Program-made: the position numbers and the translations under genes
Assembly: GCF_964213995.1 (NCBI RefSeq)
Contig: NC_135830.1
Coordinates: 19,406,001 to 19,470,000 of the forward strand
DNA: 64,000 bases
Reading direction: 5' to 3'
Source of the DNA: Mustelus asterias
Taxonomy: Eukaryota
Notes under the pieces: model-generated
Database searches by the model: none
The model's input: the letters and a program-made list of their open reading frames with translations, nothing else
What the model was told of the DNA's origin: nothing
Shown here: positions 1 through 60,935 of the stretch, piece after piece
Numbering within the stretch: position 1 is the stretch's first letter
How the letters are laid out: each line of letters starts with the position of its first letter

Positions 1-290
1 AGCCTGGGACATTCAAAGCAGACAAAGCAATTGATGAGGATTCAAACTGAAGTTCGCATTAGTTCCGCGCATGGGTCCACCTGAATTTAAGTATAAATAG
101 GAACAATAGGAACAAGAAAAAGTACAGCCGCATAATCGTGGAACAAGATCTTTCAGTAATCTGAGAATTCACTAATCTCCCGAGAAGAGGCCATTTACCT
201 CACATCACCACCAGACGGAGCCTCTTCACCGTGTTGTTGTGTTCCCTGTATCGGGAGCGGGTTTCATCACATACCGATATGATCGGGAGC

Positions 291-460
291 CATAATCCAG
301 GAGTATTGGATGAATTGTTGGATTACACAGTAAAATGATAAAGAACAGTAATGGAGGATACCTGATTTAATTGTTGGATTACACAATGATATGTTAAGGC
401 GCAGAAATCCAGGAGAACTGGATTAGTTCCTGGATTACACAGTGATATTTAACAGAGCAG
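291..460. repeat. Degenerate tandem repeat, about 57 bp x 3
   Basis: GGATTACACA at about 320, 376 and 433. Confidence 0.7.
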
Positions 461-1510
461 ATATGGGTGCTAAGTTTACTGACGACACAAAGATAGATAG
501 GAAAATAAATGGTGAAGAGGATGTAAGGAGGCGATAAAGGGACATAAATAGGTTAAATGAATTGGCAAAGCTCCGCCAAATTGATTATAAATGCGGAAAT
601 GTCCATTTTGGCATGATGAATATAAAATACACTTAATCTCTAAATAGTGAGACATCACAAATTTCTGAGGTACTGAGGGATTTGGCTATCCTCGGGCGTG
701 AACCAAGAGGGGCTACTGTGCAGGTATAGCAATTAATTAGAAATGTCATAAAATGTTACCATTTATTACGAGGGAATGTATTATTAAATAGGAAGGTAAA
801 GATTCATAAGATATAGGAGCAGAATTAGGCCATTCGATCATTGAGTCCGCTCCGCCATTCGATCATGGCTGATATGCCTCTCATCCCCATTTTCCTGCTT
901 TCTCCCCATAACCCTCCAATTACCAATTAAAAATCTGCCTAACTGCTCCTTAAATTTACTCACTGTTCCACCATCCACCGCACTTTGGAGTAGCGAATTC
1001 CACAGATTTACAACACTTTGGGAGAAGTAGTTTCTCCTCAACTCTTTTAAATTTGCTATCCTTATCCTAAGACTATGACCTCTCGAACTAGAATGCCCCA
1101 CAAGAGGAAGCACCGGCTTCACGTCTACTTTATTCATATCTTTCATCATCTTGTCTACCTCAATTTGATCTCTCCCCCCCCCCCCCCCCCCCATTCTTCT
1201 AAATTCCGGTATCTTTCCGTTGTACAGGGCATTGGTGAGACCACATCTGGAGCATTTTGCACAATACTTTTTCCTTATCGATAGAAAGATGATAATGCGT
1301 TAGAAAACGTTCAGAGAAGGTTTGCAATAGTATTACCAGGTATGAGCGGGTTACCTGTATCAGCGGAAAGGATACTGATGCTGGCTTTGTATCCAATGGA
1401 GTTTCGAAGATTCAGAGATAACTTTATTGAAACCTTTAAAACCCTAAAGGATATTAACGGTGAGGATGTGGAGCGGATGGTTACTCGTGCCGTGTTGTAG
1501 CTGTACTGGA
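455..1510. mobile_element. Old plus-strand CR1 fragment with nested minus-strand CR1 3' end (about 825-1205)
   Basis: KFTDDTK and VRPHLE relics; ELRRNYFSQ on the minus strand. Confidence 0.7.
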
Positions 1511-1806
1511 TATTTCTGGGGCTTTGTATTTCTCGGCGTGTATATATCTCGGCGCTTGGTTCTGCATCTGTTTACAATGCGGTTGTACTGTCCACGGGAG
1601 GGCTCTCTCTGGTCGCTTACCAAACATCACAGTCGCCTTCTGCAGAGAGTGACTATTTGCAGATATAAAAATGGGCGGGGGAAATAAATCCCAGCCAGTC
1701 GCATCACGCCTTGTTGATTCTTTCAATTTCTCACATTCCAGGTCCGGTACAGGCGGAAATCATTGTTTCTGTTTCTGGAGCTCAGACTGGAAGGCTCGCA
1801 GTGAAA

Positions 1807-2277
1807 ATGTTCCTGACTCTGGTTATTGTTCTGATCACAGGTCAGTGATTCTGATCACATATTGCAAAGTATGTTGCAAACCTTGTGCTATTTCCCTTTC
1901 CCATCTCTCTGTGACTACTGTCTTCTTCTGCCTCCTAACCCACTGTGTGTCCGCTGTTTATTTCCAGAGATGAGTAACGGAGACTCAGTCTCCCAGTCAG
2001 AACCAGGAGTTGAAGTAGCAGAGGGTGAAGATTCAGCAATACCCTGCAGTTACTCTGCGTCGAGTTCAGCTGTACAACATGACCTGTTCTGGGATCGCCA
2101 GTATCCACACCGAGCTCCTCAGTATCTGCTCAAAGCCAATTGTTTTGGGTTTACCGATGCGGCTCCCGGCTTTGAACACTTCAGCGGGAATCTCAACCAA
2201 ATACAAAGCACTTTTCACTTGTCCATGAAAGACTTGAAGATAAGAGACAGCGCCGTGTATCACTGTGCACTGAGACA
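1807..2277 (+). CDS. TCR alpha/delta-type V segment, family A (open frame, defective RSS heptamer). Leader 1807-1840, V exon 1968-2277
   Basis: Leader MFLTLVIVLIT with GT donor at 1841 and tttccag acceptor. V exon DSVSQ..C..LFWDRQ..DSAVYHCALR. WYRQ is changed to WDRQ. Confidence 0.85.
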
Positions 2278-2316
2278 GACAGTGAATGAGGCTCCCATGG
2301 CCCTCTTACAAAAACT
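2278..2316 (+). other. 23-RSS with mutated heptamer
   Basis: GACAGTG (invariant first C lost) + 23 nt + ACAAAAACT. Confidence 0.85.
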
Positions 2317-2559
2317 GGTACAGGTCCACAATCAAGTGTTAGGTATCAGGAAAAAAGAAGTTTGAAGTAGAATCGATAGCCATTGATTTCAGCTATTCGA
2401 CCAGAGACAGTTGTACCTGATAAGAACGTGATAAGAAAGGATGATTTCCGAGAGCCGCTTGTCCCTCTGGAATACAAGAGGGGAACAATGCTATTGTACC
2501 CGTACCCGCTGCAGTAAACATGCAAACGTGGTGAGGCAGCTCCCTCTCGTGGCGATCGG

Positions 2560-9498: not shown

Positions 9499-10558
9499 CT
9501 ATCTGCAAAGCACGTGAACAGAGCCCAGTCCATCACTCAAACATGCCCTCCATCCATTGACTCCGTCTACACTTCCCGCTGCCTCGGAAAAACAGCCAGT
9601 ATAATCAAGGACCCACGTACCCTGGACATTCTCTCTTCCACTTCTTCCGTCAAGAAAAAGATACAAAAGTCTGAGATCACGCACCAACCGACTCAAGAAT
9701 AGCTTCTTCCCTGCTGCCATCAAACGTTTGAACGGACTTCCTCATAGTAAGTTGATCTTTCTCTACACCCTAGCTATGCATGTAACACTACATTTGGCAC
9801 TGTTTCGTTTTCTTCTCTATGAACGGTATGTTTGTCTGTATAGCGCGCAAGAAACAATACTTTGTAAACCAATACATGTGACGATAATAAATCGAATCCT
9901 ACCAAATCAAAAATCTTCCTGACCGGCACCTACACCAATATCAGATGCATCATGTATTGAAAACATGTCCTACAATTTTACTCCAAATTGAATTGTTGAG
10001 ACGTACACCGGGACATGAGTTCAAAGCATGAAAAATACTTAACAGATAATATCGAGAAATCACGTGAACTGGAATACACCAGAAACGGTGTCGTCTCTGA
10101 ACTGTAAACGGGATGCTCTGGAGATATTCGACAGGACTAGCGGGGGATTTAAAGATGGACATAGACTGAACATTTTAAACTATCGTGTATCTCCGAACTG
10201 GAGTAAACAGTGACAGGCGGAACAGGCTTTAAGCATTTGCAGTGACAGGTAAAAGCGGGAAAGCAGAAAGAGCAAAAAAGCAGGTCAGCGATTGAGTGGA
10301 ATGCAGGAATGGTTAAATGGCAAAGCAGATGATAGAGCAAGGGAAGGATGAGGTCGTGGGACAAGTTAGTAAGCAATTAATAATCGTGACCATGGTCTAT
10401 CATGAAAAACAGATTGGTGACCACAAGGTGCCGTCTAAAATTCAAAGGGAAAACATTTAAAAACGGGAATACAGTTTAGAATCAGTTATTGTTGAAAGCA
10501 ATCTTGAATCCTGAAGGTTAAAATACTTGGGCGCTGCTCATTGCGTTTCATATCGCCG

Positions 10559-10572
10559 CCACTAGAGGGCAG
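10559..10572 (+). promoter_or_regulatory. CTCF-like motif
   Basis: CCACTAGAGGGCAG; paralogs at 30797 and 45198. Confidence 0.6.
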
Positions 10573-11317
10573 TGGGGACTGTTTGCGTTTAATGTTGGAA
10601 GGAATTCCAGACACACCTGTGTTCAGTGACTTTATTAAAGAAAAAGCCATAAAACGAACAGAGACGGAAACAAACCATTAATTTAAGTTAAGTATGTTTT
10701 TTATGATATTTAGCTCAATTTATTCTTATGTGTTGCCAATATTGCAATTACTGTTGGCAGCTTGTAAATATTCAAGTAAACATTTGGCAGCATCTGTGCA
10801 GAGGGAAACAGTGTTAACATTTCGAGTCCGTATGATCCTTATACAGAATATAAAGCTGCTCTTTGTTTCTCCCCTGCGTTTCAAACAGAATCGGTGCTGG
10901 TTAAAGGGGAGGTAATGACCTCGTGGCATTATCGCCAGACTATTAATCCAGAAGCTCAGCTAATGTTCTGGGGACCCGGGGTCGAATTAGATTTAAATAA
11001 TCCCCACAGTGCAGAAGGACGCCATTAAGCCCTTCGAGCCTGCACCGGGCCATAACTCCATACATTAACCCGAGCTAGTCCCCCTGACATTAAGGGACAA
11101 TTTAGCATGGCCAATCAGCGCATTTTTGGACTGTGGGAGGAAACCGGAAAACGGAAACTCACGGAGACATGGGAGAATGTGCAGACTCCGCAGAGACAGT
11201 GACCCAAGCCGGGAACCGAACCCGAGTCTCTGGCGCTGTGAGGCAGCTGTGCTAACAAATGTGCTACTGTGCCGCCCCATTTGGATTCAATCAAAATATC
11301 TAGAATTAATATCTAGA

Positions 11318-11445: not shown

Positions 11446-11845
11446 TCTACAATTAAGGATCTATTGATGATTGTGAAACCATTGTCGATTGTCAGAAAAC
11501 TTCATCTGGTTCACTAACATTACTTAGGGGAGGAGACCTGCCGTTACCCGCTCTGGTCTATGTGTGACTCTCTGTTGTTGACTCTGAACTGTCCTCGGAC
11601 AACTAGGGATGGGCAATAAATTCTGGCCAGCTCTGTCACACGAATGAATTTAAAAATGATAAGAGCCAGTGTATGCCCAACTGCCCTACTCAGTTCCTCA
11701 TCAAAAACATTGACCACACTCTGCCACGGTTGGATTTCATTCCAGGTCCAACGCTCTCAAAGGACAAGCGTCTGACTCTCCATCATTATCTTCTGCTAAA
11801 TCCCAGAGATCATAACTGTTTTGAGTCAGGAGATGATAAGTATGA

Positions 11846-11917
11846 CCACCAGAGGGCGTGTCAGTGAGCCGAGAACCTCAGCATTGGAATGCTCCCCGAC
11901 CCTCTGTGTATATATAA
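11846..11917 (+). promoter_or_regulatory. Family B promoter: CTCF-like motif plus TATA
   Basis: CCACCAGAGGGCG then TATATAA; paralogs at 24660 (minus), 31328, 41688 and 48320. Confidence 0.65.
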
Positions 11918-12042: not shown

Positions 12043-12431
12043 ATGAATGAAATAATGACTCTCAAATTATTGATTTTAGGTGAGTGTTTTGTGCAGGCAA
12101 TCGTATTTCCATCTTTTTGTTTTGTGTTTCTAATTTTTTTGTTCCCTCTTTTCTCAACAGTTATCAGCGGAGAGGCTGCGATCCACCAACCACAGCTGAT
12201 ACATGCACAAGGGGGACAATCGATTGAAATCCGGTGCAATGCAAGTACTAGCAGCACCGACAGTGCAGATATCTAAGGAATCGCGGTCCGAAATTCACCC
12301 TATCGGCTATTAGCGGCAACGCCACTGACGGGCGGTTCACGCTCTTTATTGGCCCAACAAGAAGTTAGAACACTCTCGGCATCGACAGCACGGCAATGTC
12401 AGACGCTGGAGTGTATCACTGTGTAATGAGG
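12043..12431 (+). pseudogene. TCR V pseudogene, family B. Leader 12043-12079, exon 12161-12431
   Basis: An approximately 10-nt deletion removes IHW and shifts the frame; TAG further on. RSS CACCGTG-23-ACAATATCT at 12432-12470. Confidence 0.9.
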
Positions 12432-13082
12432 CACCGTGAGACAAAGACTGAGCGCCCCAATACAATATCTACTGCAGCTTCCCATCAGGCAATCTCTACA
12501 CATCTACTGCTCTCTCCCAAATTTGGTGACTCAAATAAGGGGTATCGATCCACAGCCGTCGCCCATTCTCTAAGCGAAAGGTTTCTCAGACCGCCCTGAA
12601 TGTGTTGGCTTCTTTAGTTGATGGAGTGCAGATCATATCTTTCTCGAAGGAAAGGATTTTTCAGGCTGTGCTGAAATGTTGAATTATTTCGTGAGGTACA
12701 GTGAAACATCTTCCACTCGTTCGGTAGGAAATGGTTTTACTGGATTCAAGCACCCTGGGCCAGGAAAGTGCATTTTGAGAGGCACAACCCAAAGGGATTC
12801 TGTTCCCCTCACAATCCCTCACAGGGAGAAGAAGAACCCACTGCCTTTTATAGAAGTAACGTTCTGATGCGAACTGCCGGTGAAGAGAGCAGAGAATCAA
12901 TAAACTTACATCTCAGGTGACGAATGTGCATTTACAACCAATCCAAAAGCAGCAACCCACGTAACAGAGACTTTGATTGGATGATTATGTCTCTAATTAT
13001 GCGAACATTCAGTGCACTCACTCAGTGTGTGCTCTTCCTGTCATCTGTGTGCACCGTTTTCTTTTGACAGAAGAATTGGAAG

Positions 13083-14472
13083 ATGTATTATCCGCAAGGA
13101 GTGAATCTATCATTCGTCATTCTGGTCCTGCTAGCATGTAGGCACAGGAGTTGTATGCAATAACTTGCAGTGTGTGTTCTATGTTCCTGTGTTTTATTCT
13201 TTGAAGCGGTCCTACAGATCGATGTCTCTCAGTCTCCAGCTTCTCGGACAGTCACTGGAGGGGATTCGGTGCGGATAAACAGCAGCTATGAGATGTCCAG
13301 CATTTACACCCTGCACTGGTACAGACAGAAATCCGGTCAGCGACTGGAGTGGGTGATAAAGCGAGTCTCTGCTGGCAAGGAGAGAAAGGACCGATTCATA
13401 GAGTCATAGAGGTTTACAGCATGGAAACAGGCCCTTCGGCCCAACTTGTCCATGCCGCCCTTATTTTTTTTAAAAACCCCTAAGCTAATCCCAATTGCCC
13501 GCATTTGGCCCATATCCCTCTATACCCATCGTACCCATGTAACTATCTAAATGCTTTTTAAAAGATAAAATTGTACCCGCCTCTACTACTACCTCTGGCA
13601 GCTTGTTCCAGACACTCACCACCTTCTGTGTGAACAAATTGCCCCTCAGAAAACACTTTTGTATCTCTCCCCTCTCACCTTAAACCTATGCCCTCTAGTT
13701 TTAGACTCCCCTGCCTTTGGGAAAAGATATCGATTATCTACCTTGTCGATGCCCCTCATTATTTTATAGACCTCTATGAGGTCACCCCTCAGCCTCCAAC
13801 GCTCCAGAGAAAAAAGTCCCAGTCTATTCAGCCTCTCCTTATAACTCAATCCATCAAGTCCTGGTAGCATCCTAGCAAATCTTTTCCGCACTCTTTCTAG
13901 TTTAATACAATCCTTTCTATAATAGGGTGACCAGAATTGCACACAGTATTCCAAGTGTGGCCTTACCAATGTCTTGTACAACTTCAACAAGACGTCCCAA
14001 CTTGAAGGGCGGCACGGTAGCACAGTGGTTAGCACTGCTGCTTCACAGCTCCAGGGTCCTGGGTTCGATTCCCGGCTCGGGTCACTGTCTGTGTGGAGTT
14101 TGCACATTCTCCTCGTGTCTGCGTGGGTTTCCTCCGGGGTGCTCCGGTTTCCTCCCCCAGTCCAAAGATGTGCGGGTTGGGTTGATTGGCCAGGTTAAAA
14201 ATTGCCCCTTAGAGTCCTGAGATGCGTAGGTTAGAGGGATTAGTGGGTAAATATGTGGGGGTAGGGCCTGGGTGGGATTGTGGTCGGTGCAGACTCGATG
14301 GGCCGAATGGCCTCCTTCTGCACTGTAGGGTTTCTATGATTTCTATGAACTCCTATATTGAATGTTCTGACCGATTCGAATTGGAACTTTCCACTGCGGA
14401 AAAATGGGGCCAGTTGGTTATTGAAAACACAGAGAGCACGGATACCGCTGTGTATTAAAGTGCGACAGAGTC
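13083..14472 (+). pseudogene. TCR V pseudogene, family C, interrupted by a LINE with nested SINE
   Basis: Leader 13083-13137. 14-nt deletion in FR1, first Cys changed to Ser, insertion 13398-14368, YY changed to Y*. RSS CACACTG-23-ACAATATCT at 14473-14511. Confidence 0.9.
13398..14368 (-). mobile_element. CR1 3' fragment inserted into a V exon, with nested HE1 SINE (14004-14347, plus strand)
   Basis: 9-bp TSD GACCGATTC (13389, 14369); SINE flanked by AACT. Confidence 0.9.
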
Positions 14473-14689
14473 CACACTGAGAGGAAAGATGGCAGTCACG
14501 GTACAATATCTTCCCCCCTGTTTATAGTTACAGTTCTGGAACAGCCTCAGTAGTCTCTCTCAATGAAACACAGGGCTGGAAAGCTGGGTCAGAATGAGAG
14601 CAGCGAACAAAGGCGATGAGCCAGGGCTGCCGTGGGTAATGATATTGCAAGATTTATCTCTGTCACTCCCATTCGATGAAAAGGTTTAT

Positions 14690-17235: not shown

Positions 17236-17249
17236 AAGTCTATCATAAT

Positions 17250-18230: not shown

Positions 18231-18452
18231 ATTGTGTGTGTTTGTGTGTGTGGCGGGGGTGCGGGGGGAGGGGGGGGGGAAACGGGGCGAAGGGGAGGGA
18301 TGTTGGGGGGGGGGCAACGAAGTGGCGGCAGTGGATGCATTTGGTTGACTATCACAACCACAAATATAAAGCGACTTCAAAGGTTGATGGTTTTCCACAC
18401 ATCAGGAAGAACAAAAATGAGTCTTGAGGGAGCAGGGAAACATGTGACATGC

Positions 18453-18466
18453 GCGCCCTCTGGTGG
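18453..18466 (-). promoter_or_regulatory. CTCF-like motif
   Basis: Reverse complement CCACCAGAGGGCGC. Confidence 0.65.
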
Positions 18467-18989
18467 ATTTCATCAGAACATTTCAGTTCAATGCAAGAGA
18501 AAAGAAAACAGAAAATCGGATAATTTCCGGCAATGTCTCCAGCGTCTGATTATCAGGAGATAGACAATTATTAAATGAATTGAAGATTGGAAATTCGCTT
18601 TTGTCTACAGGTTCTTTCCCTTTCTCAGCTGCACACTGAGGAACGTTACGCCACAACCCACATGCACATTCATTTCCTGTCCGTTCAACTGGTCCAGATT
18701 AGAGTGATCTTTCAGCACAGTCTCCAGGCTGTCCAGATGTCCCCCACCAGCCTCCCCCATCCTCACCCACTGCATCCCTCTATGTAAATGCTATTCAATT
18801 CATTCTCTTTGTTGATAATAAATTTCTACATTGAGAACTCCATTTATATATTTTGACATGAATAAGTAACATAAATTGTTTTCAAAGTACAACAATCCAT
18901 TGATTAGAAATCAGCATGACAATATCATCACAGAATCACAGAACACCCAGATTTTCCTCCAGGTCATTTATACCCCTGCAGATAACAGA

Positions 18990-19390: not shown

Positions 19391-19446
19391 ATTCCATCAT
19401 CTTCATGATGCAATATTCGAGAATAAATGTGATTACAGAGAATATT

Positions 19447-19460
19447 CCACTAGGTGGCTC
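19447..19460 (+). promoter_or_regulatory. CTCF-like motif
   Basis: CCACTAGGTGGCTC, identical at 37941 and 53594. Confidence 0.6.
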
Positions 19461-21458
19461 TATAAGACCTCATGTTTGACCAAACCTGCATAACACCACA
19501 GTTCACCGCTGTGACAGCTGACAGCTGTAAATTACAGGATTTAATTTTGCGATGTGACACTTCACTGTGAACAACCGGATATATCGGATAAGCACCTGCA
19601 GGTGAATTTCTGTTTTCTATGTTCCTACAACGTTGTCTGATTTCAACAATAAATTAGTTATATCTCTTGGGGTTAAAGGGAGCAAGGAAATGGAGGAGAG
19701 GGGGTTCAGGATATTCAATTTGTGGATCAGCCATGATCAGAATCAATGACAGAGCAGGCTCGAATGGCCTACTCCTGTTTCTGGTTTCTATGTTTCTAAA
19801 TTGCCAATGTTATGGCACAGGAGACTTGGAGAGTGAACTGTATCAACCATTGTATTTCCTGGTCCAATATCACAGGCTAGTCCGAAGAATATACTCGCCC
19901 AATGTTTCTAAATAATAGCGTTGATCAGAAAAGAGTGTGCATGTGTGTGGGGTGGAAGACAGAGAGAGAGAAAGAGAGAGTGACTGAGCGAGAGAGCGAG
20001 GAGTGGGGGAGAGGGATTCGTCGCTCCTCTCGTGACGAAAGGTTTTAGTTACTATAGATCAAGGTGTCCAGAATATAGCGGGACTCGCAAATCTCTTCAC
20101 TCCACGTCAGCACGACAAGTCTTTCTGGCAGAGATCCACAATGCCCCGTGTCCTCTGAGTAAATAAGTTTTCAAACAGCACAACCGCGGCTACACTGGGA
20201 ATGAACTTCCATCCTTCGTAAAATACTTTCAGATCTCCAGAATCCATAAATGGCGCTAAATAAGTTAAAAACTTTACTTATTTTGCGGAGTAATAGTTGA
20301 TTCAAGAGTTAAGCTTATTGTCCGGCTGTCTCCATCGGAAATGTTAAGGTTGCTGCTTTTAGATTTCAATTTCTTCATTTGAAACCATGTTTTCAATGAT
20401 TGGGTTCACGAACAGTCACCACCTCCCGGGATTTCCAGTCTCCAGTCTGTTATGAGATATTTTACAGGAGCCTCGGATTACTTCAGGAAAAACAATCTGA
20501 GTAGCTGTTCTGTGACTCCAATGGAGTCTGGCCTCCTGCTCAAGGAGAGCGGGAGACTGAGAAAACAATAGGCTGCTTCCTATCTAAGACTCAGTTATTA
20601 ACCTGATCGTCTCTATAAAGCTTTACACGAATCTACCTGCACTTGTAAATATAAATTATATATTTATTGTCAAAATGGTACAAATATCTCAGAATTAACA
20701 GTACAAGCGCTAATCAGAGAATCCCTACAGTGCAGAAGGACGCCATTCGGCCCATCCAACCCAGGCCATATTCCCTATACCCTGCTGATCAACCTGACAC
20801 GAAGGGTCAAATGAATCTGGCCAATTAACCTACCCCGCACATCTTTGGACTGTGGGAGGAAACCAGAAAGCTCAGAGGAAAACCCGCGCAGAATGTGCGA
20901 ATCCCACACAGACAGTCACCAAGGCGGGAATTGAACCTGGGTCCTGGGGCTGTGAGGCAGTCAGTGCTAACCACTGTGCCATCGCGCTGCCCGACAAATT
21001 CAAGCTCCCAGGCGAGGTTCAGTTGTTCGCTCTCTTGCCTCTGATACAAAAAGTTTTCAAAACTCCAGTCTCTCTCCAGAGACTCCTTTTCCAGAATCCA
21101 TTCAGATGCGGCAGTTCAGTTCTCGGGGAATGGTGAATTGTCAGAGGCGCCGGCTTTCGGATGAGATGTTCAATCGGGGCGCCGAATGCCCCCTCGGAAG
21201 GGAGTTATCGATTGTAAGGAAACTATATTGAAGAAGAGCTCTCGTCCATAACTACCCAACAATAAACGCCGTGAATCAGGTTATCCATTAAAATGTTGTT
21301 TGAAGGATCATGCAGGGGCCAAATTGGCTGCTGTGCCCTCTCCGTTCATTATAACAATGACTGTGAACACACTGTGGCACACCAAGAACGGCGCCATAAA
21401 AATACTCCCTTCTCATTCACTCAACCGCCCACATCTGTACATTGAGTGAGGTCCTGAC

Positions 21459-22966: not shown

Positions 22967-23005
22967 GGTTTTTGTACAGTGACTGCCGCCTTTCCTCTCA
23001 ATGTG
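22967..23005 (-). other. 23-RSS
   Basis: CACATTG + 23 nt + consensus ACAAAAACC. Confidence 0.9.
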
Positions 23006-24042: not shown

Positions 24043-24081
24043 AGATATTGTATTGGGGCGCTCAGTCTTTGTCTCACAGTG
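24043..24081 (-). other. 23-RSS
   Basis: CACTGTG + 23 nt + ACAATATCT. Confidence 0.9.
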
Positions 24082-31521: not shown

Positions 31522-31924
31522 ATGAATGAAATAATAACTTTCAATTTATTGATTTTAGGTGAGTATTTTGTGCAGGCAATCGGAGTTCCACCTGTTTGCT
31601 TTGTGTTTCTCATTTTTTTGTTCTCCCTTTTCTCAACAGTTATCGGCGGAGAGGCAGCGATCCACCAACCACAGCTGATACATGCACAAGAGGGACAATC
31701 GATTGAAATCCGGTGCAATGCAAGTACCAGCGGCACGGACAGTATCCATTGGTACAGACAACTAAGGAATCGAGGTCCGAACTTCATCCTATCGGCTTAC
31801 AGCGGCAACATCACAGACGGGCGGTTCACGCTCTTTATTGGCCCAACAAGAAGTTATAACATACTCGGCATTGACAGCACGGCAATGTCAGACGCTGGAG
31901 CGTATTACTGTGGAGTCAGTGAGG
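31522..31924 (+). CDS. TCR alpha/delta-type V segment, family B, apparently functional. Leader 31522-31558, V exon 31640-31924
   Basis: Leader, splice sites and frame intact. Ends YYCGVSE because of a 4-nt insertion after the second Cys. Confidence 0.85.
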
Positions 31925-31963
31925 CACTGTGAGACAAAGCCTGAACGCCCCAATACAATATCT
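31925..31963 (+). other. 23-RSS
   Basis: CACTGTG + 23 nt + ACAATATCT. Confidence 0.9.
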
Positions 31964-32569: not shown

Positions 32570-32987
32570 ATGTATCATCGGCAAGAAGTGAAACTATCAT
32601 TCGTCATTCTGGCGCTGCTAGCATGTAGGTACAGGAGTTGTATTCAATAACTCGCAGTGTTTATTCTTTGCTCCTGTGTTTCAGTCTTTGAACGGTCTAA
32701 CAGCTCGATGTCTCTCGGGTGGAGTGTTCCAGTCTGCAGCTTCTAGAACAGTCCCGAGCGGGGATTCGGTGCGGATAAACTGCAGCTATCCAGCATTTAC
32801 ACCCCCGCATTGGTACAGACATAACTCCGGTCAGCGACTGGAGTGGATAATAAAGCGAGTTCCAACAAGGCAAAGAGAGAAAGGACGGAATTGTATGGGA
32901 ACTTTCCACTGCGGAAAAATGGGGCGAATTGGCTATTGAAAACACAGAGAGCGGGGATACCGCTGTGTATTACTGTGCGATAGAACC
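32570..32987 (+). pseudogene. TCR V pseudogene, family C
   Basis: Leader 32570-32624, exon from 32704. Indels of -7 and +1 in CDR1 compensate; a further +1 in CDR2 shifts the frame. RSS CACATTG-23-ACAAAAACC intact at 32988-33026. Confidence 0.9.
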
Positions 32988-33129
32988 CACATTGAGAGGA
33001 AATTCGGCAGTCATTGAACAAAAACCTCCCTCTTGCTTACAGTTCCGAACAGCTCCAGTAATCTTTCTCAAAAACACAGGGCAAGAAACATGGTTCAGAA
33101 TAAGAGCAGCGAACAAAGGCAATGAGCAG

Positions 33130-37880: not shown

Positions 37881-38243
37881 GTTACTCCTATTTCTTTCAT
37901 GATGCAATATTCGAGAATAAATGTGTTTACAGAGAATATTCCACTAGGTGGCTCTGCAAGACCTTATGTTTGACCAAAGCTGCATAACACCACAGTTCAC
38001 CGCTGTGACAGCTGTAAATTACAGGATTTAATTTTGCAATGTGACATTTCACTGTGAACAATGGTATATATCGGACAAGCACCTGCATATAAATTTCTGG
38101 TTTGTATGTTTCTAAAATGTTGTCTAATTTCAAGACGAGGTTAGATATATTTCTTGGGGCTGAAAGGTTCACGGATATTGGGGAAAGGGTTTCAGAATAT
38201 TGAATTTGTTGATCAGCCATGATCAGAATGAATCGGTACGGTA

Positions 38244-39030: not shown

Positions 39031-40271
39031 GGGGGGAACGAAAGCGAGGGGTAAAAACGGGGGATTAGTCCCTCTTCTCGTGACGTAAGATTTTGGTTAC
39101 TATAGATCAAAATATCCAAAAAATACCGGGACTCGCAAATCTCTTCACTCCCCTATGAGAGTCAGTGTGACAAGTCTTTCTGGCAGAGATCTACAATGCC
39201 CTCTGTCCTCTGTATGAATAATATTTCAAACAGCACAACAGCGGCTACACTGGAAATGAACTTCCATCGTTTGTAAAATACTTTCTGATCTCCTGAATCC
39301 ATGAAGGCCGCTTAATCAGTTAAAATGTTTCTTTCTCTCACGGAGTAATAATTGATTCAAGGGTTAAACTTATGGTCCAGCTGTTTCCATCAGAGGCAGC
39401 ATAGGCTGTTGCTTTGAAATTTCAGTTTCTTTGTTTGAATCCATGTTTTCAATGATTGGCTTGATGCACAATCCCTCCCGGGATTTCCAGGATTCAATCT
39501 CCAGTTTGATGTGAGATTTTTGTTTTCTCTCCACGGGACAATCGGATTCTTTCAGTAAAAACAATCTGAGCGGCTATTGTGTGAACCTGATGGAAACTGA
39601 CCGCCTGTACAGGGAGAGCGGGTGACTGAGGCACCAAGAGGCTGCTTCCATTCTAAACCTCATTTATTAACCTGATCACCTCTATAAAGCTTTACACTAA
39701 TCTATCTGCATGTGTAAATATGAACTATATATTCATTGTCAAAATGGTGCAAATGTCTCAGAATTAACAGTACAAGTGTTAATCTCCAAACACCAGTTGC
39801 CAGGCGAGGTTCTGGTGTTCGCTCTCTCGCCTGTGAAGCAGAAGTTTTCAGAATCCCAGTCTCTCTCCAGAGACTCCAGTCGGAGGATCCATTCAGTGCA
39901 GACCTAGTGCAATGCTGAATTGTGAGAGTAGCGAATTTTGGATGAGATATTAAATCGGGGGCTCCGCCTCAGATGAGGGTTATTGACCGGAAAGACGCTA
40001 TTTCGAAGAAGAGCTGTGGAATTGCTCTCGTCAGTAACTACCCAACAATAAACATCCTAAAACAGATTATCCATTAAAATGTTGTTGTTTGAAGGATCAC
40101 GTGGGGGCAAAATTCTTCTTCAGTCCACTAACACAGTGACAGTGAACACACTATGGGACACCAAGGAAGGCATCATATAAATACACGACTATCATTCACT
40201 CAACTGCCCAACCTATTGAGTGAGGCTCTGACAGTTGTTGTTCAGGTTCAGCTCTGCTCTGTGTCTCTGTG

Positions 40272-40578
40272 GGTCTCAGTGCGCAGTAATTTACCCCTGA
40301 GTCAATCAGCTCTGTTTCAGACACTTTCAACGGGACGGTGATATTCACAAAATCAAACTCGGCAGATAAGCGGTCCCCTGGGAATATCTCTCTGTTCCCG
40401 CTGTATCTATGTCTCTGCAGCAGAAACTCCAGGGACCCGCTGGAATGCTGACGGTACCAGAATAGATGAGGGATGTCGCTGGTTGTAGCTTCAAAGTTAC
40501 AGAACAACTGAACATCATCTCCTTCACTCACGGTGACTGCAGCCGGTGTCTGTGTAACAGAGTCTCCTCCACAATGTC
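40272..40578 (-). pseudogene. TCR V pseudogene, family D (no leader, splice acceptor lost)
   Basis: Open V frame DSVTQTP..LFWYRQ..VNYCALRP, but acceptor CAG is CGG and the intron is cut at about 40640. RSS CACAGAG-23-ACAACAACT at 40271-40233. Confidence 0.85.
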
Positions 40579-41881
40579 CCGGAAGAGTACAGAGTAACAT
40601 CAATTCAAACGATGTCAATCAACGGCCCCATGCATTTCCCCTTGGCTAGTCCCCCTGACACTAACGGGCAATTTAGCATAGCCAATCCACCTAACCCGCA
40701 CATCTTTGGACTGCGAGACGAAATTGGAGCACCCGGAGGAAACCCACGCAGACACAGGGATAACGTGCAAACTCCACATAGATTCGTCGTAATTTGCCCG
40801 ATTTTGTTTATTCATTTGTGGGGCATCGGGGGTCGCTGGCTGGCCAGCATTTATTGCCCATCCTTAGATGCCAGAGGGCAGTTGAGAGTCAACCACATTG
40901 CTATGACTCTGGAGTCACATGTAGGCAGATTTCCTTCCTAAAGGTTATGCCGGCACGAAAGGTAAGAAAGACCACCAATGCCTCTACTTTCTCAGAAGAT
41001 TAATAAATTTGGCGTGTCAACTATGACTCTCACCAACTTTTACAGATACACGATAGAAAGCATTCGTTCTGGTTGTATACTAATACAATATTCACTGTAT
41101 ACTAATACATGTGACTATAATGATTCAAATCAAATAAAGTTTATTTATTCATCACAAGTAAGGTTTGCATTAACTCTGCAATGAAGTTACTGTGAAATTC
41201 CCCTCGTCGCCACATACCGACGCCTGTTTGGATCAATGCACCTTACCAGATGCCTTTCAGAATGTGAGAGGAACCCTGAGCACGCGGAGGAAACCCACGC
41301 AGACACGGGGAGAACATGCAGCCTCTGAAGACAGCGTGACCAGGAATCGAAGCCAGGGATCGAACCAGGGTCCCTCGTGCTGTGGGGCAGCAGTGCCAAC
41401 GACTGTGCCACCGTGTCATTTCGAGACTGTACGACCACTCTACAGATTATATACCCACAGTATGCTTCTCCACTGAGTTTCAAATCGATTCGATGTTGGT
41501 TAAAGGCCAAACGTCTGTCCCATTGCCCGACTCAGTTCCTCATCAGACACCTTGACCACACTCTGCCAGGGTTGGATATCAGTCCAGGCCGAAGATTCTG
41601 AAAGGACAAATGTCTGACTGCAACGTCATTAGTTCCTGCTCGTTCTCCGAGACCAGAACTGTTTGATTCATCGGATTATAAACATGACCACCAGTGGGCG
41701 TGTCAGTGAGCCGAGAACCTCAGCGTTTCAATGCTCCCCGACCCTCGGTGTATATATAAGAGAAACCTGCCTTCATAGCAGGCAGAGTAAAACATCATCA
41801 ATTGAACATCAGAATCATCCCAAACGAATCAATTCCCTGCAATATTTCTGATCCACTGAGCGCAATAAACAGCAAAACACA

Positions 41882-42278
41882 ATGAATGAAATAATAACTT
41901 TCAATTTATTGATTTTCGGTGAGTGTTTTGAGCAGGCAATCGTCGTTCCATCTTTTTGTTTTGTATTTTTCATTTCCATTCCCCCTTTTCTCAACAGTTA
42001 TTGGCGAAGCGGCTGTGATCCACCAACAACAGCTGATGCATGCACAAGAGGGACAATCGATTGAAATCCGGTGCAATGCAACTACCAGCAGCATGGACAG
42101 TATCCATTGGTACAGACATCTAAGGAATCGTGGTCCGAAATTCATCCTATCGGCTTTTAGCAGCAACACAACTGACGGGCGGTTCACGCTCTTTATTGAC
42201 CCAACAAGAAGTTATAACATTCTCGGCATTGACAGCACGGCAATGTCAGACGCTGGAGTGTATCACTGTGCAGTGAGG
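41882..42278 (+). CDS. TCR alpha/delta-type V segment, family B, apparently functional. Leader 41882-41918, V exon 41998-42278
   Basis: Leader and splice sites intact; C..WYRH..YHCAVR. Confidence 0.9.
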
Positions 42279-42317
42279 CACTGTGAGACAAAGACTGAGC
42301 TCCCCAATACAATATCT
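42279..42317 (+). other. 23-RSS
   Basis: CACTGTG + 23 nt + ACAATATCT. Confidence 0.9.
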
Positions 42318-42927: not shown

Positions 42928-43350
42928 ATGTATTATCTGCAAGAAGTGAATCTATCATTCGTCATTCTGGCGCTGCTAGCATGTAGGTACAGGAATTGTA
43001 TTCAATAACTCGCAGTGTTTATTCTTTGCTCCTGTGTTTCATTATTTGAACGGTCTTACAGGTCGATGCCTCTCGGGCGGAGTGTTCCAGTTTCCAGCTG
43101 CTAGAACAGTCCCGAACGCATATTCGGTGCGGATAAACTGCAGCTATGAGATCTCCAGCATTTACGCCCTGCATTGGTACAGACAGAAATCCGGTCAGCG
43201 ACCGGAGTGGGTGATAAAGCGAGTCTCAGCTGGCAAAGAGAGAAAGGACCGATTCAAATTGGAACTTTCCACTGCGGAAAAATGGGGCCAGTTGATTATT
43301 GAAAATACGGAGAGCGCGGATACCGCTGTGTATTACTGTGCGGTAGAACC
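42928..43350 (+). CDS. TCR alpha/delta-type V segment, family C, apparently functional. Leader 42928-42982, V exon 43062-43350
   Basis: MYYLQEVNLSFVILALLA|gtaggt; INC..WYRQ..YYCAVEP; frame open. Confidence 0.9.
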
Positions 43351-43389
43351 CACATTGAGAGGAAAGGCGGCAGTCACTGTACAAAAACC
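43351..43389 (+). other. 23-RSS
   Basis: CACATTG + 23 nt + ACAAAAACC. Confidence 0.9.
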
Positions 43390-43499: not shown

Positions 43500-43592
43500 A
43501 TGGGTAATGATAGTACTACAGATACATTTTAAAGTCACAGCTTTGCCTTCCGTCTTAACTCCTGAGGACAGCAGCTGTTGACAGGATCTCCA
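43500..43592 (-). pseudogene. FR1-only fragment of a family E-like V
   Basis: GDPV..QQLLSSGVKTEGKAVTLKCICST. Confidence 0.6.
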
Positions 43593-48513: not shown

Positions 48514-48910
48514 ATGAATAAAATAATTGCTCTCAGTTTATTGATTTTAGGTGAGTGTTTTGTGCAGGCAATCGGAGTTCCATCTTTTTATTTTGTGTAT
48601 CACATTTTTGTTCCCCCTTTTCTCAACAGTTATCGGCGGAGAGGCGGCGATTCACCAACCACAGCTGATACATGCACAAGAGGGACAATCGATTGAAATC
48701 CCGTGCAATGCAAGTACCAGCGGCACCGAAAGCATCCATTGGTACAGACATCTAAGGAATCATGGTCCGAAATTCATCCTATCGGCTATTAGCGGCAACG
48801 CCACTGACGGGCGGTTCACGCTCTTTATTGACCCAACAAGAAGTTATAACATTCTCGGCATTGACAGCACGGCAATGTCAGACGCTGGAGTGTATCACTG
48901 TGCAGTGAGG
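48514..48910 (+). CDS. TCR alpha/delta-type V segment, family B, apparently functional. Leader 48514-48550, V exon 48630-48910
   Basis: MNKIIALSLLIL|gtgag; PCNAS..WYRH..YHCAVR; frame open. Confidence 0.9.
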
Positions 48911-48949
48911 CACTGTGAGACAAAGACTGAGCGCCCCAATACAATATCT
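48911..48949 (+). other. 23-RSS
   Basis: CACTGTG + 23 nt + ACAATATCT. Confidence 0.9.
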
Positions 48950-49529: not shown

Positions 49530-49946
49530 ATGTATTATCCGCAAGAAGTGAATCTATTATTCGTCATTCTGGTGCTGCTAACATGTAGGCACTGGAGTTG
49601 TATTCAATAACTCGCAGAGTTTATTCTTTGCTCCTGTGTTTCATTATGGTCTCACAGGTCGATGTCTCTCGGGCGGCGTGTTCCAGTCTCCAGCTTCTCG
49701 GACAGTCCCGAGCAGGAGTTCGGTGCGGATAAATTGCAGCTATGAGATATCCAGCATTTACATCCTGCATTGGTACAGACAGAAATCCGGTCAGCGACTG
49801 GAGTGGGTGATAAAGCGAGTCTCAACTGGCAAAGAGAGAAAGGACTGATTCGAATTGGAACTTCCCACTGCGGAAAAATGGGGCAAATTGGTTATTGAAA
49901 ATACGGAGAGTGGGGATTCCGCTGTTTATTACTGTAAGACAGAATC
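49530..49946 (+). pseudogene. TCR V pseudogene, family C (single nonsense codon)
   Basis: Leader 49530-49584, exon from 49658. CGA changed to TGA at 49846-49848. RSS CACACTG-23-ACAAAAACG at 49947-49985. Confidence 0.9.
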
Positions 49947-50094
49947 CACACTGAGAGGAAAGGCGGCAGTCACTGTACAAAAACGTCCCTCCTGCTTACA
50001 GTTCCAGTACAGATGCAGTGTTCCCTCCCAAAAATACAGGGCAGGAAAGGTGGGTCCGAATGAGAGCAGCGAATAGAGGCAGGGAGCAGGGCTG

Positions 50095-50198
50095 CCAGGG
50101 GTAATGATAGTATTACAAATATATTTTAAAGTCACAGCTTCGCCTTCCGTCTTAATGCCTGAGGACAGCAGCTGCTGACAGGATCTCCATCACTAAGA
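50095..50198 (-). pseudogene. FR1-only fragment of a family E-like V
   Basis: Paralog of 43500-43592. Confidence 0.55.
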
Positions 50199-52853
50199 TC
50201 TGAAATAGATGTTTCAATGGTGAAAGATCAAACAGGCGGGAGTTTAAAATTCAGCTTCAAAACCTGTTGGAAATCGTAGGATAGTCAAACGTTTTTAAGC
50301 CGACAATATCGCCATTACCACCATTTTACAAACAATAATAGATTGTTTCGTGCGATTAGGGAGCGAATGGATTCGGGGGGGAAATGCTGAGTTATCATAG
50401 AGTCATCAGGAATGGCAAGAGATAGGTCCAAATGTCGCTCCCGTTGTCTGTAGTTGCAGACCGTCAACTCCTCTGCCAAAGCAAAAAGAGATCCCCACCT
50501 ACATCACCGCTGACCCAACTGATGGCAACCAGGAAATAGCGATAACAAACTCTCCACTAGCAGACATCAGGGCAGGCGGGTCAAAGGGTAACTGTGTGAT
50601 GCCCTACAACTGGTGCTGCTGTCTGATGTGGTGTCTGACTGAGAAGGGACGGCGAACAAATAGTGAGGGGAAAAGGTGTAGGTAATTGCGGACAATACAG
50701 ATGGAGCAATGAAGAGAGATAAGTGGACAGAGAACACGAGTAAAAGAGAGTCTGTGATAGAAACAAAGGGGCGCAGTGAGAAAAGCAATATCCGAAATTG
50801 AATCAGAAATCCCAGGAGGAGAAATAAAAATAACATAATATAACAAAGCATGTGATAAGAAAGGGTGATTTCCCAGAGCCGCTTGTCCCTCTGGAATATT
50901 AGACCAGCAGTAGAACCACAATGTTATTGTTCCCGTATCCGCTGCAGCAAACACACAAAGTGAGGCAGCTCGCTCTGGTGGCGATCTGAGGTAAATGGCC
51001 ATTTCCAGTAAAATAACCAAATTCTCAACTTCTTGCAGAATGTTGTTGGATGATTATGTCGCATTATTCGTGAACATACTGTTATTACATGTATTGCAAT
51101 GAACGTATGCATGAGAGTTAATTCCATCTTTATTTTAAACCCTGACGATGCTCTTTGTTTAGTGTAATATCCCAGGGGACTTGGTGAAAGACTGTAGGAG
51201 GAAACCGGAGCACCCGGAGGAAACCCACGCAAACACGGGAAGAACGTGCAAACTCCACACAGACTGTCGACCGAGGCCGGAATTGAACCCGGGTCCCTGA
51301 TGCTTTGAAGCGGGGAGACCTGAAGAAATTGGATTTTCGACACTCTGAAATTTCGGAAAAACGGGAGAAATGAGGAATCCAATCTTATCAGTTGTAGATC
51401 TATGAGTCAATTAACGTCCATATATTTATACAGCAATATGTACTCTATTGGTTACTTTGGAATGCCAGCAAACAAGGAAGGGTAATGTCGGAATTATTAC
51501 TAAGTAGTAAACGTGACAAAAGCAAAACAATGAGAAAGCCTTAAGCAGCAGGAATGATAAAATCAAAGCAATAAGGTCCATTGTTAACTGGCATAACAAT
51601 ATTTCAGTAACATCATAGAACAAAGAAAAGTACAGCACAGGAACAGGACCGTCAGCCCCTCCAAGCCCGTGCCGATCATGATGCCCTGACGAAAAATAAA
51701 ACCTTCTGTCCTTACCTGGTCCATATCCCTCTATTCCCTCCCTATTCATGTACCCATCCTGATTTGATTTGATTTGATCCATTATTGTCACATGCATTAA
51801 CATACAGTGAAAAGTATTGTTTCTTGGCGCTTTCCAGACAAAACATACTGTTCATAGAGAAGGAAAGGAGAGAGTGCAGAATGTAGTGTTACAGTCATAG
51901 CTCGGGTGTAAAGAAAGATCAGCTTAATGCAAGGTCCAGATGCCGCTTCAATGTTACTAATGTGCCTTCTTCCACCACCTCCTCTGCCAGCGCGTTCCAG
52001 GAACCCACCACTTGCTGCGTGAAACACTTCCCCACACATCTCCCTTAAACTTACCCACTCTCACCTTGAACCTCTGCCCCCTTGTAAATTGACTCTTCCA
52101 CCCCTGGCAAAAAGCCTCTGACTATCCACCCTGCTATGCCTCTCATGATTTTGTAAACCTCTATCAGGTCTCCCCTCAGCCTGCGTCTTCCCAGTGAAGA
52201 CAATCCTAGTTTATTCAACCTCTCCTCATAGCCAACACCCTCGAGATCAGGCAACCTCCTGGTGAACATTCTTTGCACTCTGTCCAAAGCTTCCACGTCC
52301 TTCTGGTAGTGTGGTGACCAAAACTGCACGCAATACTCCAAATGCGGCCGAACCAAGGTTTTATACAGCTGCAACATGATTTGCCAAATCCATTACTCAG
52401 TGCCCCGGCTGATGAAGGCAAGCATGCCATATGCCGTTTTAATCACTTTGGCCACCTATGCTGCCACTTTGAGGGAACTGTGGACCTGCATGCCCAGATT
52501 CCTCTGTATGTTAATGTTACTCAGGGTTCTGCCATTTACAGTATAATTCGTATCTCAATTTGATCCTCCAGCATGCATCACCTCGAATTAAACTCCATCT
52601 GCCATTTCTGCGCCCAAGTCTCCAATCTATCTATATCCTGTTGCATCCTCTGACAAGCCTCATCACTATCAGCAACTCCGCCAATCTTCATATCATCCAC
52701 AAATTTACTAATCAGGTCACCCACATTTTCCTCCAGATCATTTATAGACACAACAAATAACAGAGACCCCAGCACTGATCCTTGTGGACTAGCTACAAAT
52801 CTTCATTCTGAAAAACACCTTTCCATCGCGACTCTCTGCCTTGTATAATCAAG

Positions 52854-53199
52854 ATATGCAGATGCCGGTGTTGGACTGAGGTAAGCACGGTAAGAGGTCT
52901 CACAACACCAGGTTAAAGTCCAACAGGTTTATTTGGCAGCACTAGCTTTTGGAGCCTTAAGCTCCTTCTTCAGGTGAGTGAGGACTTGTGTTCACAAACA
53001 GGGCATATAAAGACACAAACTCAATTTACAAGATAATGTTACAATGTTACAAGATAACCGTTATCTTGTAAATTGAGTTTGTGTCTTCATATTCCCTGTT
53101 TCTGAACACAAGTCCTCACTCACCTGAAGAATGAGCTTGAGGCTCCGAAAGCTAGTGCTGCCAAATAAACCTGTTGGACTTTAACCTGGTGTTGTGAGA
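52854..53199. mobile_element. Palindromic Penelope pLTR mini-element inside a LINE
   Basis: About 150-bp inverted arms; 14-bp TSD CTTGTATAATCAAG (52840, 53200). Confidence 0.85.
53121..53157 (+). ncRNA. Minimal hammerhead ribozyme motif
   Basis: CAC-CTGAAGA-atGAGCttgagGCTCc-GAAA-GC-TA-GTG. Confidence 0.6.
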
Positions 53200-54034
53200 C
53201 TTGTATAATCAAGCCAGTTCTGTATCCATCTACCAAGCCCACCCCGAATCCCATATGATGTTAGTTTTTGTACCAGTCTGCCATGAGGGACCTTGTCCAA
53301 CGCCTTACTAAAGTCAATATAAACTACATCCACAGCCCTTCCATCATCAATTTTCTTTGTCACATCTTCAAAAATCTCATCAAGTTGGTGAGACCTGACA
53401 TTTCCCATAAAATAACATGTTGCCTGTCACGAACAGGTCCATTTTCCTCCAAATGTGCATCTATCCCGTCCCTCAGTATCTTCTCCAAAAACTTCCCCAC
53501 CACTAATGTCAGGCTCACCGGCTACAATTTCCTAGATTATCTCTGCTTCCTTCATGATGCAATATTCGAGAATAAATGTTTATAGAGAATATTCCACTAG
53601 GTGGCTCTGCAAGACCTTATGTTTGACCAAAACTGCATCTATCCAAAGTTCACCGCTGTGACGGTGGCAGCTGTAAATTACAGGATGCTGAATTGTGAGA
53701 GTTGCCAAATTTTGGATGTGATATTAAATCGCGGGCACCCACTGCCCTCTCAGATAACTTACGGTTATTGACTGTAAGGACCCGGGTTCGATTCACGGCC
53801 TCGGATCACTGTCTGTGTGGAGTTTGCACGTTCTCCACGTGTCTGTTTGCGTTTCCTCCGGGTGCTCTAGTTTCCTCCCACAGTCTGAATGACATGCTGG
53901 TTAGGTGCATTGATCCGAACAGGCGACTGGATGATTTTCACAATAACTTCAGTGCAGTGTTAATGTAAGCCTTACTTGAGACTAATAAATAAACTTCAGA
54001 TGTGAAATACAGTGTTGTGCAACTTGTGAACTTA

Positions 54035-60921: not shown

Positions 60922-60935
60922 ATAAATTATCGCAC

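Follow-up and report, generated by a model that had tools for sequence, protein, structure and literature searches.

The window analysed here, 64 kb of the Mustelus asterias genome, is a TCR alpha/delta V island in which 16 CTCF-like motifs lie among the V segments. The motifs are copies of five ancestral paralog classes (I, II, III, IV and B), in line with the roughly five classes proposed in a first-pass annotation of the same DNA, and their polarity is tied to the V cassettes. They are probably real CTCF sites, more similar to the contact points of Igk than to the lattice of Tcra/Tcrd. We give somewhat better than even chances to a reading in which five ancestral CTCF-type sites spread with the V cassettes, are likely bound, and act as contact points for proximity capture.

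V segments and motifs of the window

The V segments combine a V-set exon, a split leader and a 23-RSS, have TCR alpha as their nearest match and are linked to J-alpha/C-alpha, which places them in the TCR alpha/delta group. They belong to families A to D:

1807..2314, plus: V-A; V exon open, heptamer GACAGTG likely not cleavable
12043..12470, plus: V-B1; frameshifted
13083..14510, plus: V-C1; split by an insertion, stop codon
21459..22606, minus: V-D1; open frame, 23-RSS, without proximal CTCF site
22967..23428, minus: V-C2; open frame, 23-RSS, inverted cassette
24043..24478, minus: V-B2; open frame, RSS non-consensus, inverted cassette
31522..31963, plus: V-B3; open frame, 3' end altered
32570..33026, plus: V-C3; frameshifted
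40233..40576, minus: V-D2 exon; 23-RSS, no leader found by pattern search
41882..42317, plus: V-B4; open frame
42928..43389, plus: V-C4; open frame, 23-RSS
48514..48949, plus: V-B5; open frame
49530..49985, plus: V-C5; stop inside the frame
ATG at 54087, minus: D-gene remnant, leader only; adjoins the class III site at 53591

The cassettes of the window show 83-95% identity between copies. The RSSs are near consensus in families C, D and E and poor in B. All five copies of family B lie within the window and none elsewhere, so the B promoter site represents a single event. Of the remote B-like pseudogenes (68% identity), the one inspected has no motif of at least 6 bits in the 1.7 kb around it. 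A contig from a second species spans the B promoter in 41400-45500, with about 600 differences.

All 16 annotated motifs were found again within 0-3 bp and on the correct strand. Their scores range from 11.6 to 22.9 bits on a JASPAR-like CTCF matrix, for which 12 bits corresponds to p of about 1.6e-5 per position. The strict pattern by which they had been described, CCAC(C/T)AG(A/G)(G/T)GGC, is matched exactly by 8 of them. Eleven are intergenic and only the five of family B are promoter-proximal; these lie 194-197 bp upstream of the ATG in 5/5 genes, as good as the 190 bp given earlier. A weakened family-A promoter site, absent from the earlier list, is included below:

205..223, plus: class I, 12.8 bits, intergenic
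1589..1607, plus: family-A promoter site, 10.9 bits, 218 bp before the ATG
2537..2555, minus: class I, 18.4 bits, faces back to V-A from about 260 bp behind it
10556..10574, plus: class II, 22.2 bits, ahead of a B-C cassette; 6/10 matches to the upstream motif
11843..11861, plus: family-B promoter site, 16.6 bits, 197 bp before the ATG; TATA-like box 68 bp past the site's start
18451..18469, minus: class IV, 17.4 bits, divergent to 19444
19444..19462, plus: class III, 15.0 bits, faces back to V-D1 from 2 kb behind it
24657..24675, minus: family-B promoter site, 11.6 bits, inverted along with gene B2
30794..30812, plus: class II, 17.3 bits, upstream motif 7/10
31325..31343, plus: family-B promoter site, 12.5 bits
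34419..34437, minus: class I, 22.9 bits, left member of a divergent I/III pair
37938..37956, plus: class III, 14.7 bits, right member of that pair
41685..41703, plus: family-B promoter site, 11.6 bits
45195..45213, plus: class II, 21.1 bits
48317..48335, plus: family-B promoter site, 18.3 bits
50966..50984, minus: class I, decayed, 11.7 bits, divergent to 53591
53591..53609, plus: class III, 14.7 bits

Among the four B genes with an open frame, three have a weak copy of the site (11.6-12.5 bits). The family-A promoter class reaches 16.0 bits in four paralogs elsewhere, versus 10.9 at 1589, and class IV has one paralog immediately to the right of the window. A repeat origin of the five classes was rejected, as flank searches gave homologs solely in the antigen-receptor region. 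The genome-wide matches of these searches cover only the LINE portion of the query, and the LINE-borne look-alike class has at most 12.6 bits.

Enrichment and conservation

In a matrix scan against shuffled sequence and adjacent non-V DNA the motifs are enriched 6- to 18-fold. The window holds 13, 8 and 5 sites at thresholds of at least 12, 15 and 18 bits. The corresponding numbers are 3.0, 0.66 and 0.12 in 200 dinucleotide shuffles (maximum 11, 3 and 2) and 2.1, 0.40 and 0.04 for 300 column-permuted matrices, of which 4, 1 and 0 reached the observed counts. The adjacent DNA with zinc-finger genes, over 700 kb, contains 25 sites of at least 12 bits and 5 of at least 15 bits, equal to 2.3 and 0.46 sites for every 64 kb. 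Along the 1.3 Mb of contiguous scaffold the density peaks at two places only, the V island and the DNA right behind C-alpha.

Further, the 14-mer CCASYAGRKGGCRS, a CTCF sequence published in PMC6746451 (available part of the text), matches three sites of the window exactly, each from a different class, where 0.058 are expected from its 3318 matches across 3.68 Gb (Poisson P 3e-5). Genome-wide it is 19-fold commoner than its reversed control (3318 vs 178), so the CTCF motif is in use in this genome. The core motif of CTCF-binding elements stands above background in all these comparisons, and a chance origin of the motifs is rejected.

The idea that the motif is better kept than its flanks across paralogs finds support in the pooled classes, class III, A and F/G, but not in B, I and II taken singly. 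At high-information positions the five window classes have 11 changes where 22.6 are expected from the flanks (P 0.0055), a result which, like all conservation tests given here, is biased upward because the classes were chosen for high scores. Class III has 0 changes against 5.7 expected in 19 non-redundant homologs anchored by the flank only (P 0.003), the family-A promoter class 1 against 7.6 (P 0.004), and the RSS-adjacent class of families F and G 3 against 12.9 (P 0.001). The excess conservation of the family-B promoter class is not significant (P 0.21). Class I shows 7 substitutions against 8.4 expected in 18 homologs (P 0.40); in a simulation of score retention with 6 copies it did pass (P 0.0035). 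Class II is significant in neither test, and the E classes are not significant in the simulation, which was disturbed by copies with indels.

These numbers bear on whether the motifs are just passengers, i.e. a few ancestral sites, some of general CTCF use and some due to chance, that recent tandem duplication has multiplied and that contribute nothing to V(D)J joining. Such a history would account for the collapse of 16 sites into five classes within highly similar cassettes, for the failure of B, II and I in the substitution test, for the several decaying copies, and for the lack of a site in most V families. It fits less well that each of the five classes attains about 15 bits or more against an expectation of 0.5-0.7 sites per window, that exact 14-mers occur in three classes, that class III, A and F/G are constrained, and that independent families keep promoter or RSS sites on the V strand. 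We regard it as unlikely.

Orientation, position and the J-alpha/C-alpha end

The first-pass annotation described an oriented lattice, a description that did not hold. A uniform orientation is ruled out by 11 plus and 5 minus sites; the sites invert with their cassettes, and 11/16 lie away from V promoters. Five of the 16 are directed at the nearest J-alpha array (11 of 16 were the scaffold join reversed), short of the about 90% J-C-directed sites of the mouse Tcra/Tcrd lattice. A general promoter rule is rejected as well. In the window 6/13 V exons have a promoter site (B 5/5, A one weak, C 0/5, D 0/2), and among 24 sampled V families it is present in four and an RSS-adjacent site in two; 18 of the 24, including the largest (36 members), have no family-fixed proximal site.

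The family-fixed V-proximal classes are found on the V's own strand in 6/6 cases (A, B, two E, H and the shared RSS-adjacent class of F/G). In families F and G, both outside the window, the site is fixed at 22 nt behind the nonamer. One copy lies at window coordinate -43161; none of the 16 listed sites belongs to this class. An upstream motif for zinc fingers 9-11 is present in about 13-15% of CTCF sites. Here it accompanies the F/G class and one E class at the published spacing with up to 8/10 matches (background 0.14% at 8/10), and in the window reaches 6-7/10 in class II and at most 6 in the other classes.

The nearest J-alpha/C-alpha is 1 Mb from the window across a scaffold gap of 200 N, with the join at 19.1636 Mb on contig C71, so the distance and the polarity of the window relative to the J-alpha array are insecure. 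It consists of a C exon and about 30 J segments with 12-RSS (contig C71, 18.37-18.42 Mb). C-alpha was located through the J pattern; Pfam PF09291 gave nothing above cut-off, and a protein search with one V of the window found no full-length TCR chains, which is weak evidence. In the present assembly the V genes are on the 3' side of C-alpha in both orientations.

A second cluster of CTCF motifs (18.449-18.4546 Mb on C71), with six sites of at least 14 bits, four minus and two plus, lies 30-35 kb past C-alpha and 30-80 kb from the J segments. On motif evidence only, this is an EACBE-like arrangement behind C-alpha. The J-alpha array and the 85 kb before it (150 kb in total) hold no site of at least 12 bits.

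One could still imagine that, as in mouse Tcra/Tcrd, promoter sites of one orientation face convergent sites at the J end and so drive loop extrusion and an ordered use of V segments. Four families with promoter sites and the cluster behind C-alpha would agree with this, but the mixed strands, the 11 sites away from promoters, the V genes in both orientations and the lack of sites of at least 12 bits in the J-alpha array or the 85 kb before it make it highly improbable.

Divergent pairs occur within the island and also at its left edge (-51037 minus, -49781 plus). The I/III pair is retained at 11 bits or more in 14 of 20 fetched paralogous loci, and both members have decayed to 11 bits or less in 5 of the 20. 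The island is embedded in a field of zinc-finger genes, with about 60 multi-finger ORFs in 1.3 Mb. Both observations would suit local insulators or promoter elements, chiefly the divergent pairs, that shield V promoters from zinc-finger/repeat chromatin or stray enhancers. The B element itself may be mostly a GC box: its 3' octamer GGGCGTGT, which we take to resemble the Sp/KLF type, is invariant in 5/5 copies and the CTCF 5' half is variable. The fixed distance of the RSS-adjacent sites in two families fits a recombination role better, as for mouse VH (PMC6746451, available part). Shielding and recombination roles are compatible with each other; we consider the shielding explanation rather improbable.

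Comparison with known receptor loci and meaning

In mouse Tcra/Tcrd 144 bound V-region sites are reported, 129 of them toward J-C and facing the TEA site (PMC5859386, available part). The shark locus resembles this system, with its TEA, INT1/2 and EACBE elements (accessible portions of PMC5859386 and PMC7515734), in the motifs upstream of V promoters and behind C-alpha. In contrast to mouse, the predicted shark sites follow the strand of each gene, V genes run both ways, and there is no TEA-like motif of at least 12 bits in the J-alpha array or the 85 kb before it. The proposal of a mammal-like control logic in cartilaginous fish is supported by the V-linked motifs under apparent constraint and the EACBE-like cluster, but not by the orientation, the J-alpha/TEA region or the spread of promoter sites over V families. 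The V-linked motifs and the cluster together lend support to an old CTCF role at the TCR alpha/delta locus.

At Igk, CTCF-anchored contacts and diffusion serve V genes in both orientations, and this capture depends on strong RSSs (PMC11153149, available part). Mouse Igk, with its Cer/Sis anchor (PMC5859386 and PMC11153149, parts available), and the shark island share V genes of both orientations and mostly intergenic sites. The V segments and the CTCF sites run both ways in the shark island, as is typical of Igk, and in both loci joining must include inversion. However, in the same portions site orientation at Igk is independent of the V, whereas V-proximal shark sites are on the V strand in 6/6 classes; and Igk RSSs are strong, whereas the RSSs of some shark V segments depart from consensus, and the DNA before J-alpha yielded no Cer/Sis-like sites. 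A candidate anchor of this kind is the cluster 3' of C-alpha, at 30-80 kb from the J segments. For family B an Igk-type capture is less fitting because its RSS is non-consensus.

The F/G sites resemble the RSS-associated sites of mouse and human IGH VH (PMC6746451, available part) in being family-specific, at a fixed distance behind the nonamer and on the V strand. The distance from the nonamer to the start of the core is about 23 nt in shark, 17-19 nt in mouse and either 19 or 48 nt in human, and the shark sites belong to TCR V, unlike those of VH.

V exons in both orientations are dispersed across megabases in this genome. The same is seen in four elasmobranchs (PMC12227049, Table S1), where the available material describes an antigen-receptor complex with TCR alpha/delta V across megabases among IgH miniclusters, likewise in both orientations. 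The term 'ctcf' is absent from the main text of that paper, CTCF is unmentioned in the accessible portion of PMC10322711, and in the literature outside subscription journals we found no description of CTCF motifs at a cartilaginous-fish TCR locus. Such motifs are in themselves unsurprising, since skate and lamprey are known to have CTCF and loop extrusion: skate TAD borders have oriented CTCF motifs (PMC10115646) and lamprey CTCF recognises the same two-part motif (PMC5504073), according to the available parts of both.

In the scheme that we favour, five ancestral CTCF-type sites were duplicated and inverted together with the TCR alpha/delta V cassettes. CTCF would occupy them in thymocytes, and the bound sites would stall cohesin as stop points, so that the V island would contact the cluster behind C-alpha or another J-C unit. 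V segments would then be captured by proximity, as at mouse Igk, instead of by one-way scanning, and the sites may affect V usage. Linear RAG scanning is unsuited to V exons that are dispersed over megabases in both orientations.

A broader and quite doubtful idea is that jawed vertebrates inherited CTCF-guided long-range V(D)J joining from their common ancestor. Shark TCR alpha/delta V families would carry portable, gene-polarised modules (promoter, RSS-adjacent, divergent pair). With these, V islands that extend across more than 10 Mb, run both ways and lie to either side of C-alpha would gain access to several J-C units, here up to 19 D-J-C units and two C-alpha. The Tcra/d, Igh and Igk designs would descend from such a mixed state.

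How V segments reach J across megabases is known only in mouse and human. In sharks the V segments are dispersed much more widely, in both orientations and among antibody clusters. The family-fixed CTCF motifs provide concrete sites for asking whether control of V(D)J joining by CTCF and cohesin dates back to the origin of adaptive immunity, and the usage of V families with a site may be contrasted with that of families without one.

Site classes and their orientation

All 16 CTCF-like motifs that the first-pass annotation had placed among the TCR alpha/delta V segments were found in the window sequence, at the same places and on the same strands. Eight of them fit its strict pattern, and their scores on a JASPAR-like CTCF matrix range from 11.6 to 22.9 bits. 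Flank homology sorts the 16 sites into five classes, in agreement with the about five independent classes proposed earlier:

Class B: five sites, each followed by a TATA-like box after 66-68 bp and by the ATG after 194-197 bp
Class I: four sites, intergenic
Class II: three sites, 0.7-3.3 kb upstream of the B-C cassettes
Class III: three sites, intergenic
Class IV: one site, with one paralog

The site annotated about 190 bp upstream of each family-B ATG is present in 5/5 genes. In general promoter sites are a minority, as 11/16 sites lie away from promoters. A family-A promoter site at 1589 forms a sixth class, absent from the first list. Further, decayed copies of an additional site class are seen at 5280 and 56212 (both minus strand; 10.0 and 11.8 bits), and the copy in another fetched stretch, L031, scores 17.2 bits.

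The sites had been described as an oriented lattice, and this is not borne out: 11 are on the plus and 5 on the minus strand, and one of the V cassettes, which are 83-95% identical, is inverted with its B site turned along with it. Therefore, the polarity belongs to the cassette and not to the locus. Classes I and III are paired divergently at two places in the window. At 14/20 fetched paralogous loci this pairing is retained, with 540-730 bp between the two sites, and at five of the 20 both sites are weakened. All 28 class III homologs are on antigen-receptor contigs.

Enrichment and sequence constraint

The motifs are enriched over both shuffled and background DNA, the comparisons suggested in the first-pass annotation. 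At 12, 15 and 18 bits the window holds 13, 8 and 5 sites, while 200 dinucleotide shuffles average 3.0, 0.66 and 0.12 (maxima 11, 3 and 2), and 4, 1 and 0 of 300 column-permuted matrices match or exceed the window counts. In 700 kb of adjacent non-V DNA there are 25 sites at 12 bits and 5 at 15 bits, i.e. 2.3 and 0.46 per 64 kb. As a matrix-free control we used a published CTCF 14-mer (PMC6746451): three exact matches, from three classes, are found in the window, where its frequency in the whole genome (3318 matches; 178 for the reversed control) predicts 0.058. Judged by sequence, the window motifs are predicted with good confidence to be real CTCF sites. Their presence is to be expected, since published work already covers how CTCF motifs are oriented at TAD borders in skate, and a two-part CTCF motif in lamprey (available parts of PMC10115646 and PMC5504073).

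Better conservation of the motif than of its flanks was found for some classes only. Changes were counted on trees at eight high-information positions and compared with a flank-based expectation; the classes tested had been picked by high score, which biases these tests upward. Pooled, the five window classes show 11 changes versus 22.6 expected (P 0.0055). For class III, with 19 homologs that were anchored by their flanks alone, the count is 0 versus 5.7 (P 0.003), and 4/141 sliding flank windows are as unchanged as its motif. The family-A promoter class has 1 change versus 7.6, and the RSS-adjacent class, located just behind the RSS nonamer in V families F and G, has 3 versus 12.9. By the same counts there is no significant excess conservation in class B (1 versus 3.0, P 0.21), no fewer changes than in the flanks in class II (4 versus 3.5), and 7 changes versus 8.4 in the 18 homologs of class I. 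A score-retention simulation, subject to the same bias, comes out in favour for I, III, F and G, and not for B, II and E. As a rival reading, passive copying of the motifs is unlikely. The upstream ZF9-11 motif, as in the available part of PMC12885311, is matched at 6-7/10 in class II and at up to 8/10 in the E and RSS-adjacent classes.

V families beyond the window

The wider sample contains about 145 annotated V exons from 24 families; it is biased by the choice of stretches mostly around family-D matches, and includes near-identical duplicates. Here, a family-fixed promoter site is present in 4/24 families: B (5/5), A (5/8), E (12/17, at two positions) and H (2/2, at at least 11 bits). A site behind the RSS is present in 2/24, G (15/15) and the F group (11/16, one F copy at +220), and in intact copies this 19-mer begins 22 nt past the nonamer. 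Neither type of family-fixed site was found in D (36 members), C and 16 further families of the sample. All six independent V-proximal classes are on the strand of their own V (chance 1 in 64). Class III is the exception to this polarity: where it lies 1.4-2.3 kb behind a D gene, as it does for some of them, it is aimed back at that gene.

The families with the RSS-adjacent motif depart from the RSS spacer of 23, with 22 in F and 24 in G (L075:7741, L077:7810, L078 and paralogs). Further, the E upstream element is doubled head to head (L038:3479/4197, L083, L088, L096, L098), and the result is a divergent CTCF-motif pair with an E gene on one side and a D gene on the other.

Locus layout and V-J joining

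The window holds 13 V exons from four families (A 1, B 5, C 5, D 2) besides remnants, in both orientations and about half of them broken; the best single-domain PDB matches of a D exon are TCR alpha chains. In window coordinates the V island extends beyond both ends, from about -48.5 kb to about +67 kb. Its fifth family, E, forms 12 tandem minus-strand copies from -41900 to -8800 (L006-L010), all with an open frame, most with a near-consensus 23-RSS, and varying mainly at CDR1. At 60935-61009 (minus strand) ARAGORN reports a tRNA-like gene as tRNA-His with the unusual anticodon ATG, possibly a mutated tRNA-Arg copy.

Contig C71, on which the window occupies G000:C71:19406001-19470000, has both IgH-type C exons (1.6 to 13.5 Mb) and V exons (4.8 to 19.5 Mb), as in the layout of the elasmobranch antigen-receptor complex (available part of PMC12227049). 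C-alpha and the nearest J-alpha array, of about 30 J with 12-RSS, occupy 18.37-18.42 Mb of the plus strand, and neither V nor delta-type unit was found over the 85 kb that precede J-alpha. Between C-alpha and the island, which this assembly places 1 Mb away on the 3' side, are a zinc-finger-gene field and one 200-N scaffold gap; the J-alpha/C-alpha unit and the island alike are surrounded by about 60 multi-finger C2H2 ORFs (18.28-19.58 Mb). RSS geometry decides which V strand can give a chromosomal V-J joint. Because of this geometry and the 3' position of the island, only minus-strand V genes could join that array, by inversion, if the scaffold join is right.

Further J-C units exist elsewhere in the genome. 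A second C-alpha exon (G000:C546:240150-240422, L073; 74% protein identity) has its own J-alpha array and V genes upstream; the genome has two TCR alpha loci. At 7.10-7.14 Mb of C71 (L061-L064), and in 18 more places, there are small D-J-C units whose C exon is related to C-alpha. These 19 copies (81-100% protein identity; 3 on C71, 16 on other contigs) are probably TCR delta. Haplotype duplication may account for part of them, but the presence of three on the same scaffold suggests a multi-cluster TCR delta.

Behind C-alpha, at 30-35 kb, lies a candidate CTCF cluster of six sites of at least 14 bits (G000:C71:18449143-18454600, L057-L058), four aimed back at J-alpha and two toward the window. 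It is a candidate alpha-enhancer boundary. Neither the J-alpha array nor the preceding 85 kb holds a site that reaches 12 bits. The cluster resembles the mouse EACBE (available part of PMC7515734), while a TEA-like site, as described for mouse in the available part of PMC5859386, was not found at the shark J-alpha end by motif scan. A mouse-type lattice is very improbable.

We lean towards a joint reading of CTCF binding, cohesin stalling, J-C contact and an effect on V usage. CTCF sites would stall cohesin inside the island and so increase its contact with a J-C region. As the V genes lie in both orientations, the V-J joining itself would occur by proximity, as at Igk (available part of PMC11153149). 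If the scaffold join holds, the E array and the inverted B, minus-strand V genes that have promoter sites, would point at the plus-strand sites behind C-alpha. That the sites, divergent pairs included, provide local insulation, or that the B site is an Sp/KLF element, is quite unlikely.

V-linked CTCF sites are already known in mouse and human; in titles and the beginnings of abstracts, outside subscription journals and bioRxiv supplements, we found no report of them at a cartilaginous-fish TCR locus. The features in which this shark varies are gene-tied polarity, promoter and RSS-adjacent designs together on TCR V genes, and a repeated divergent pair.
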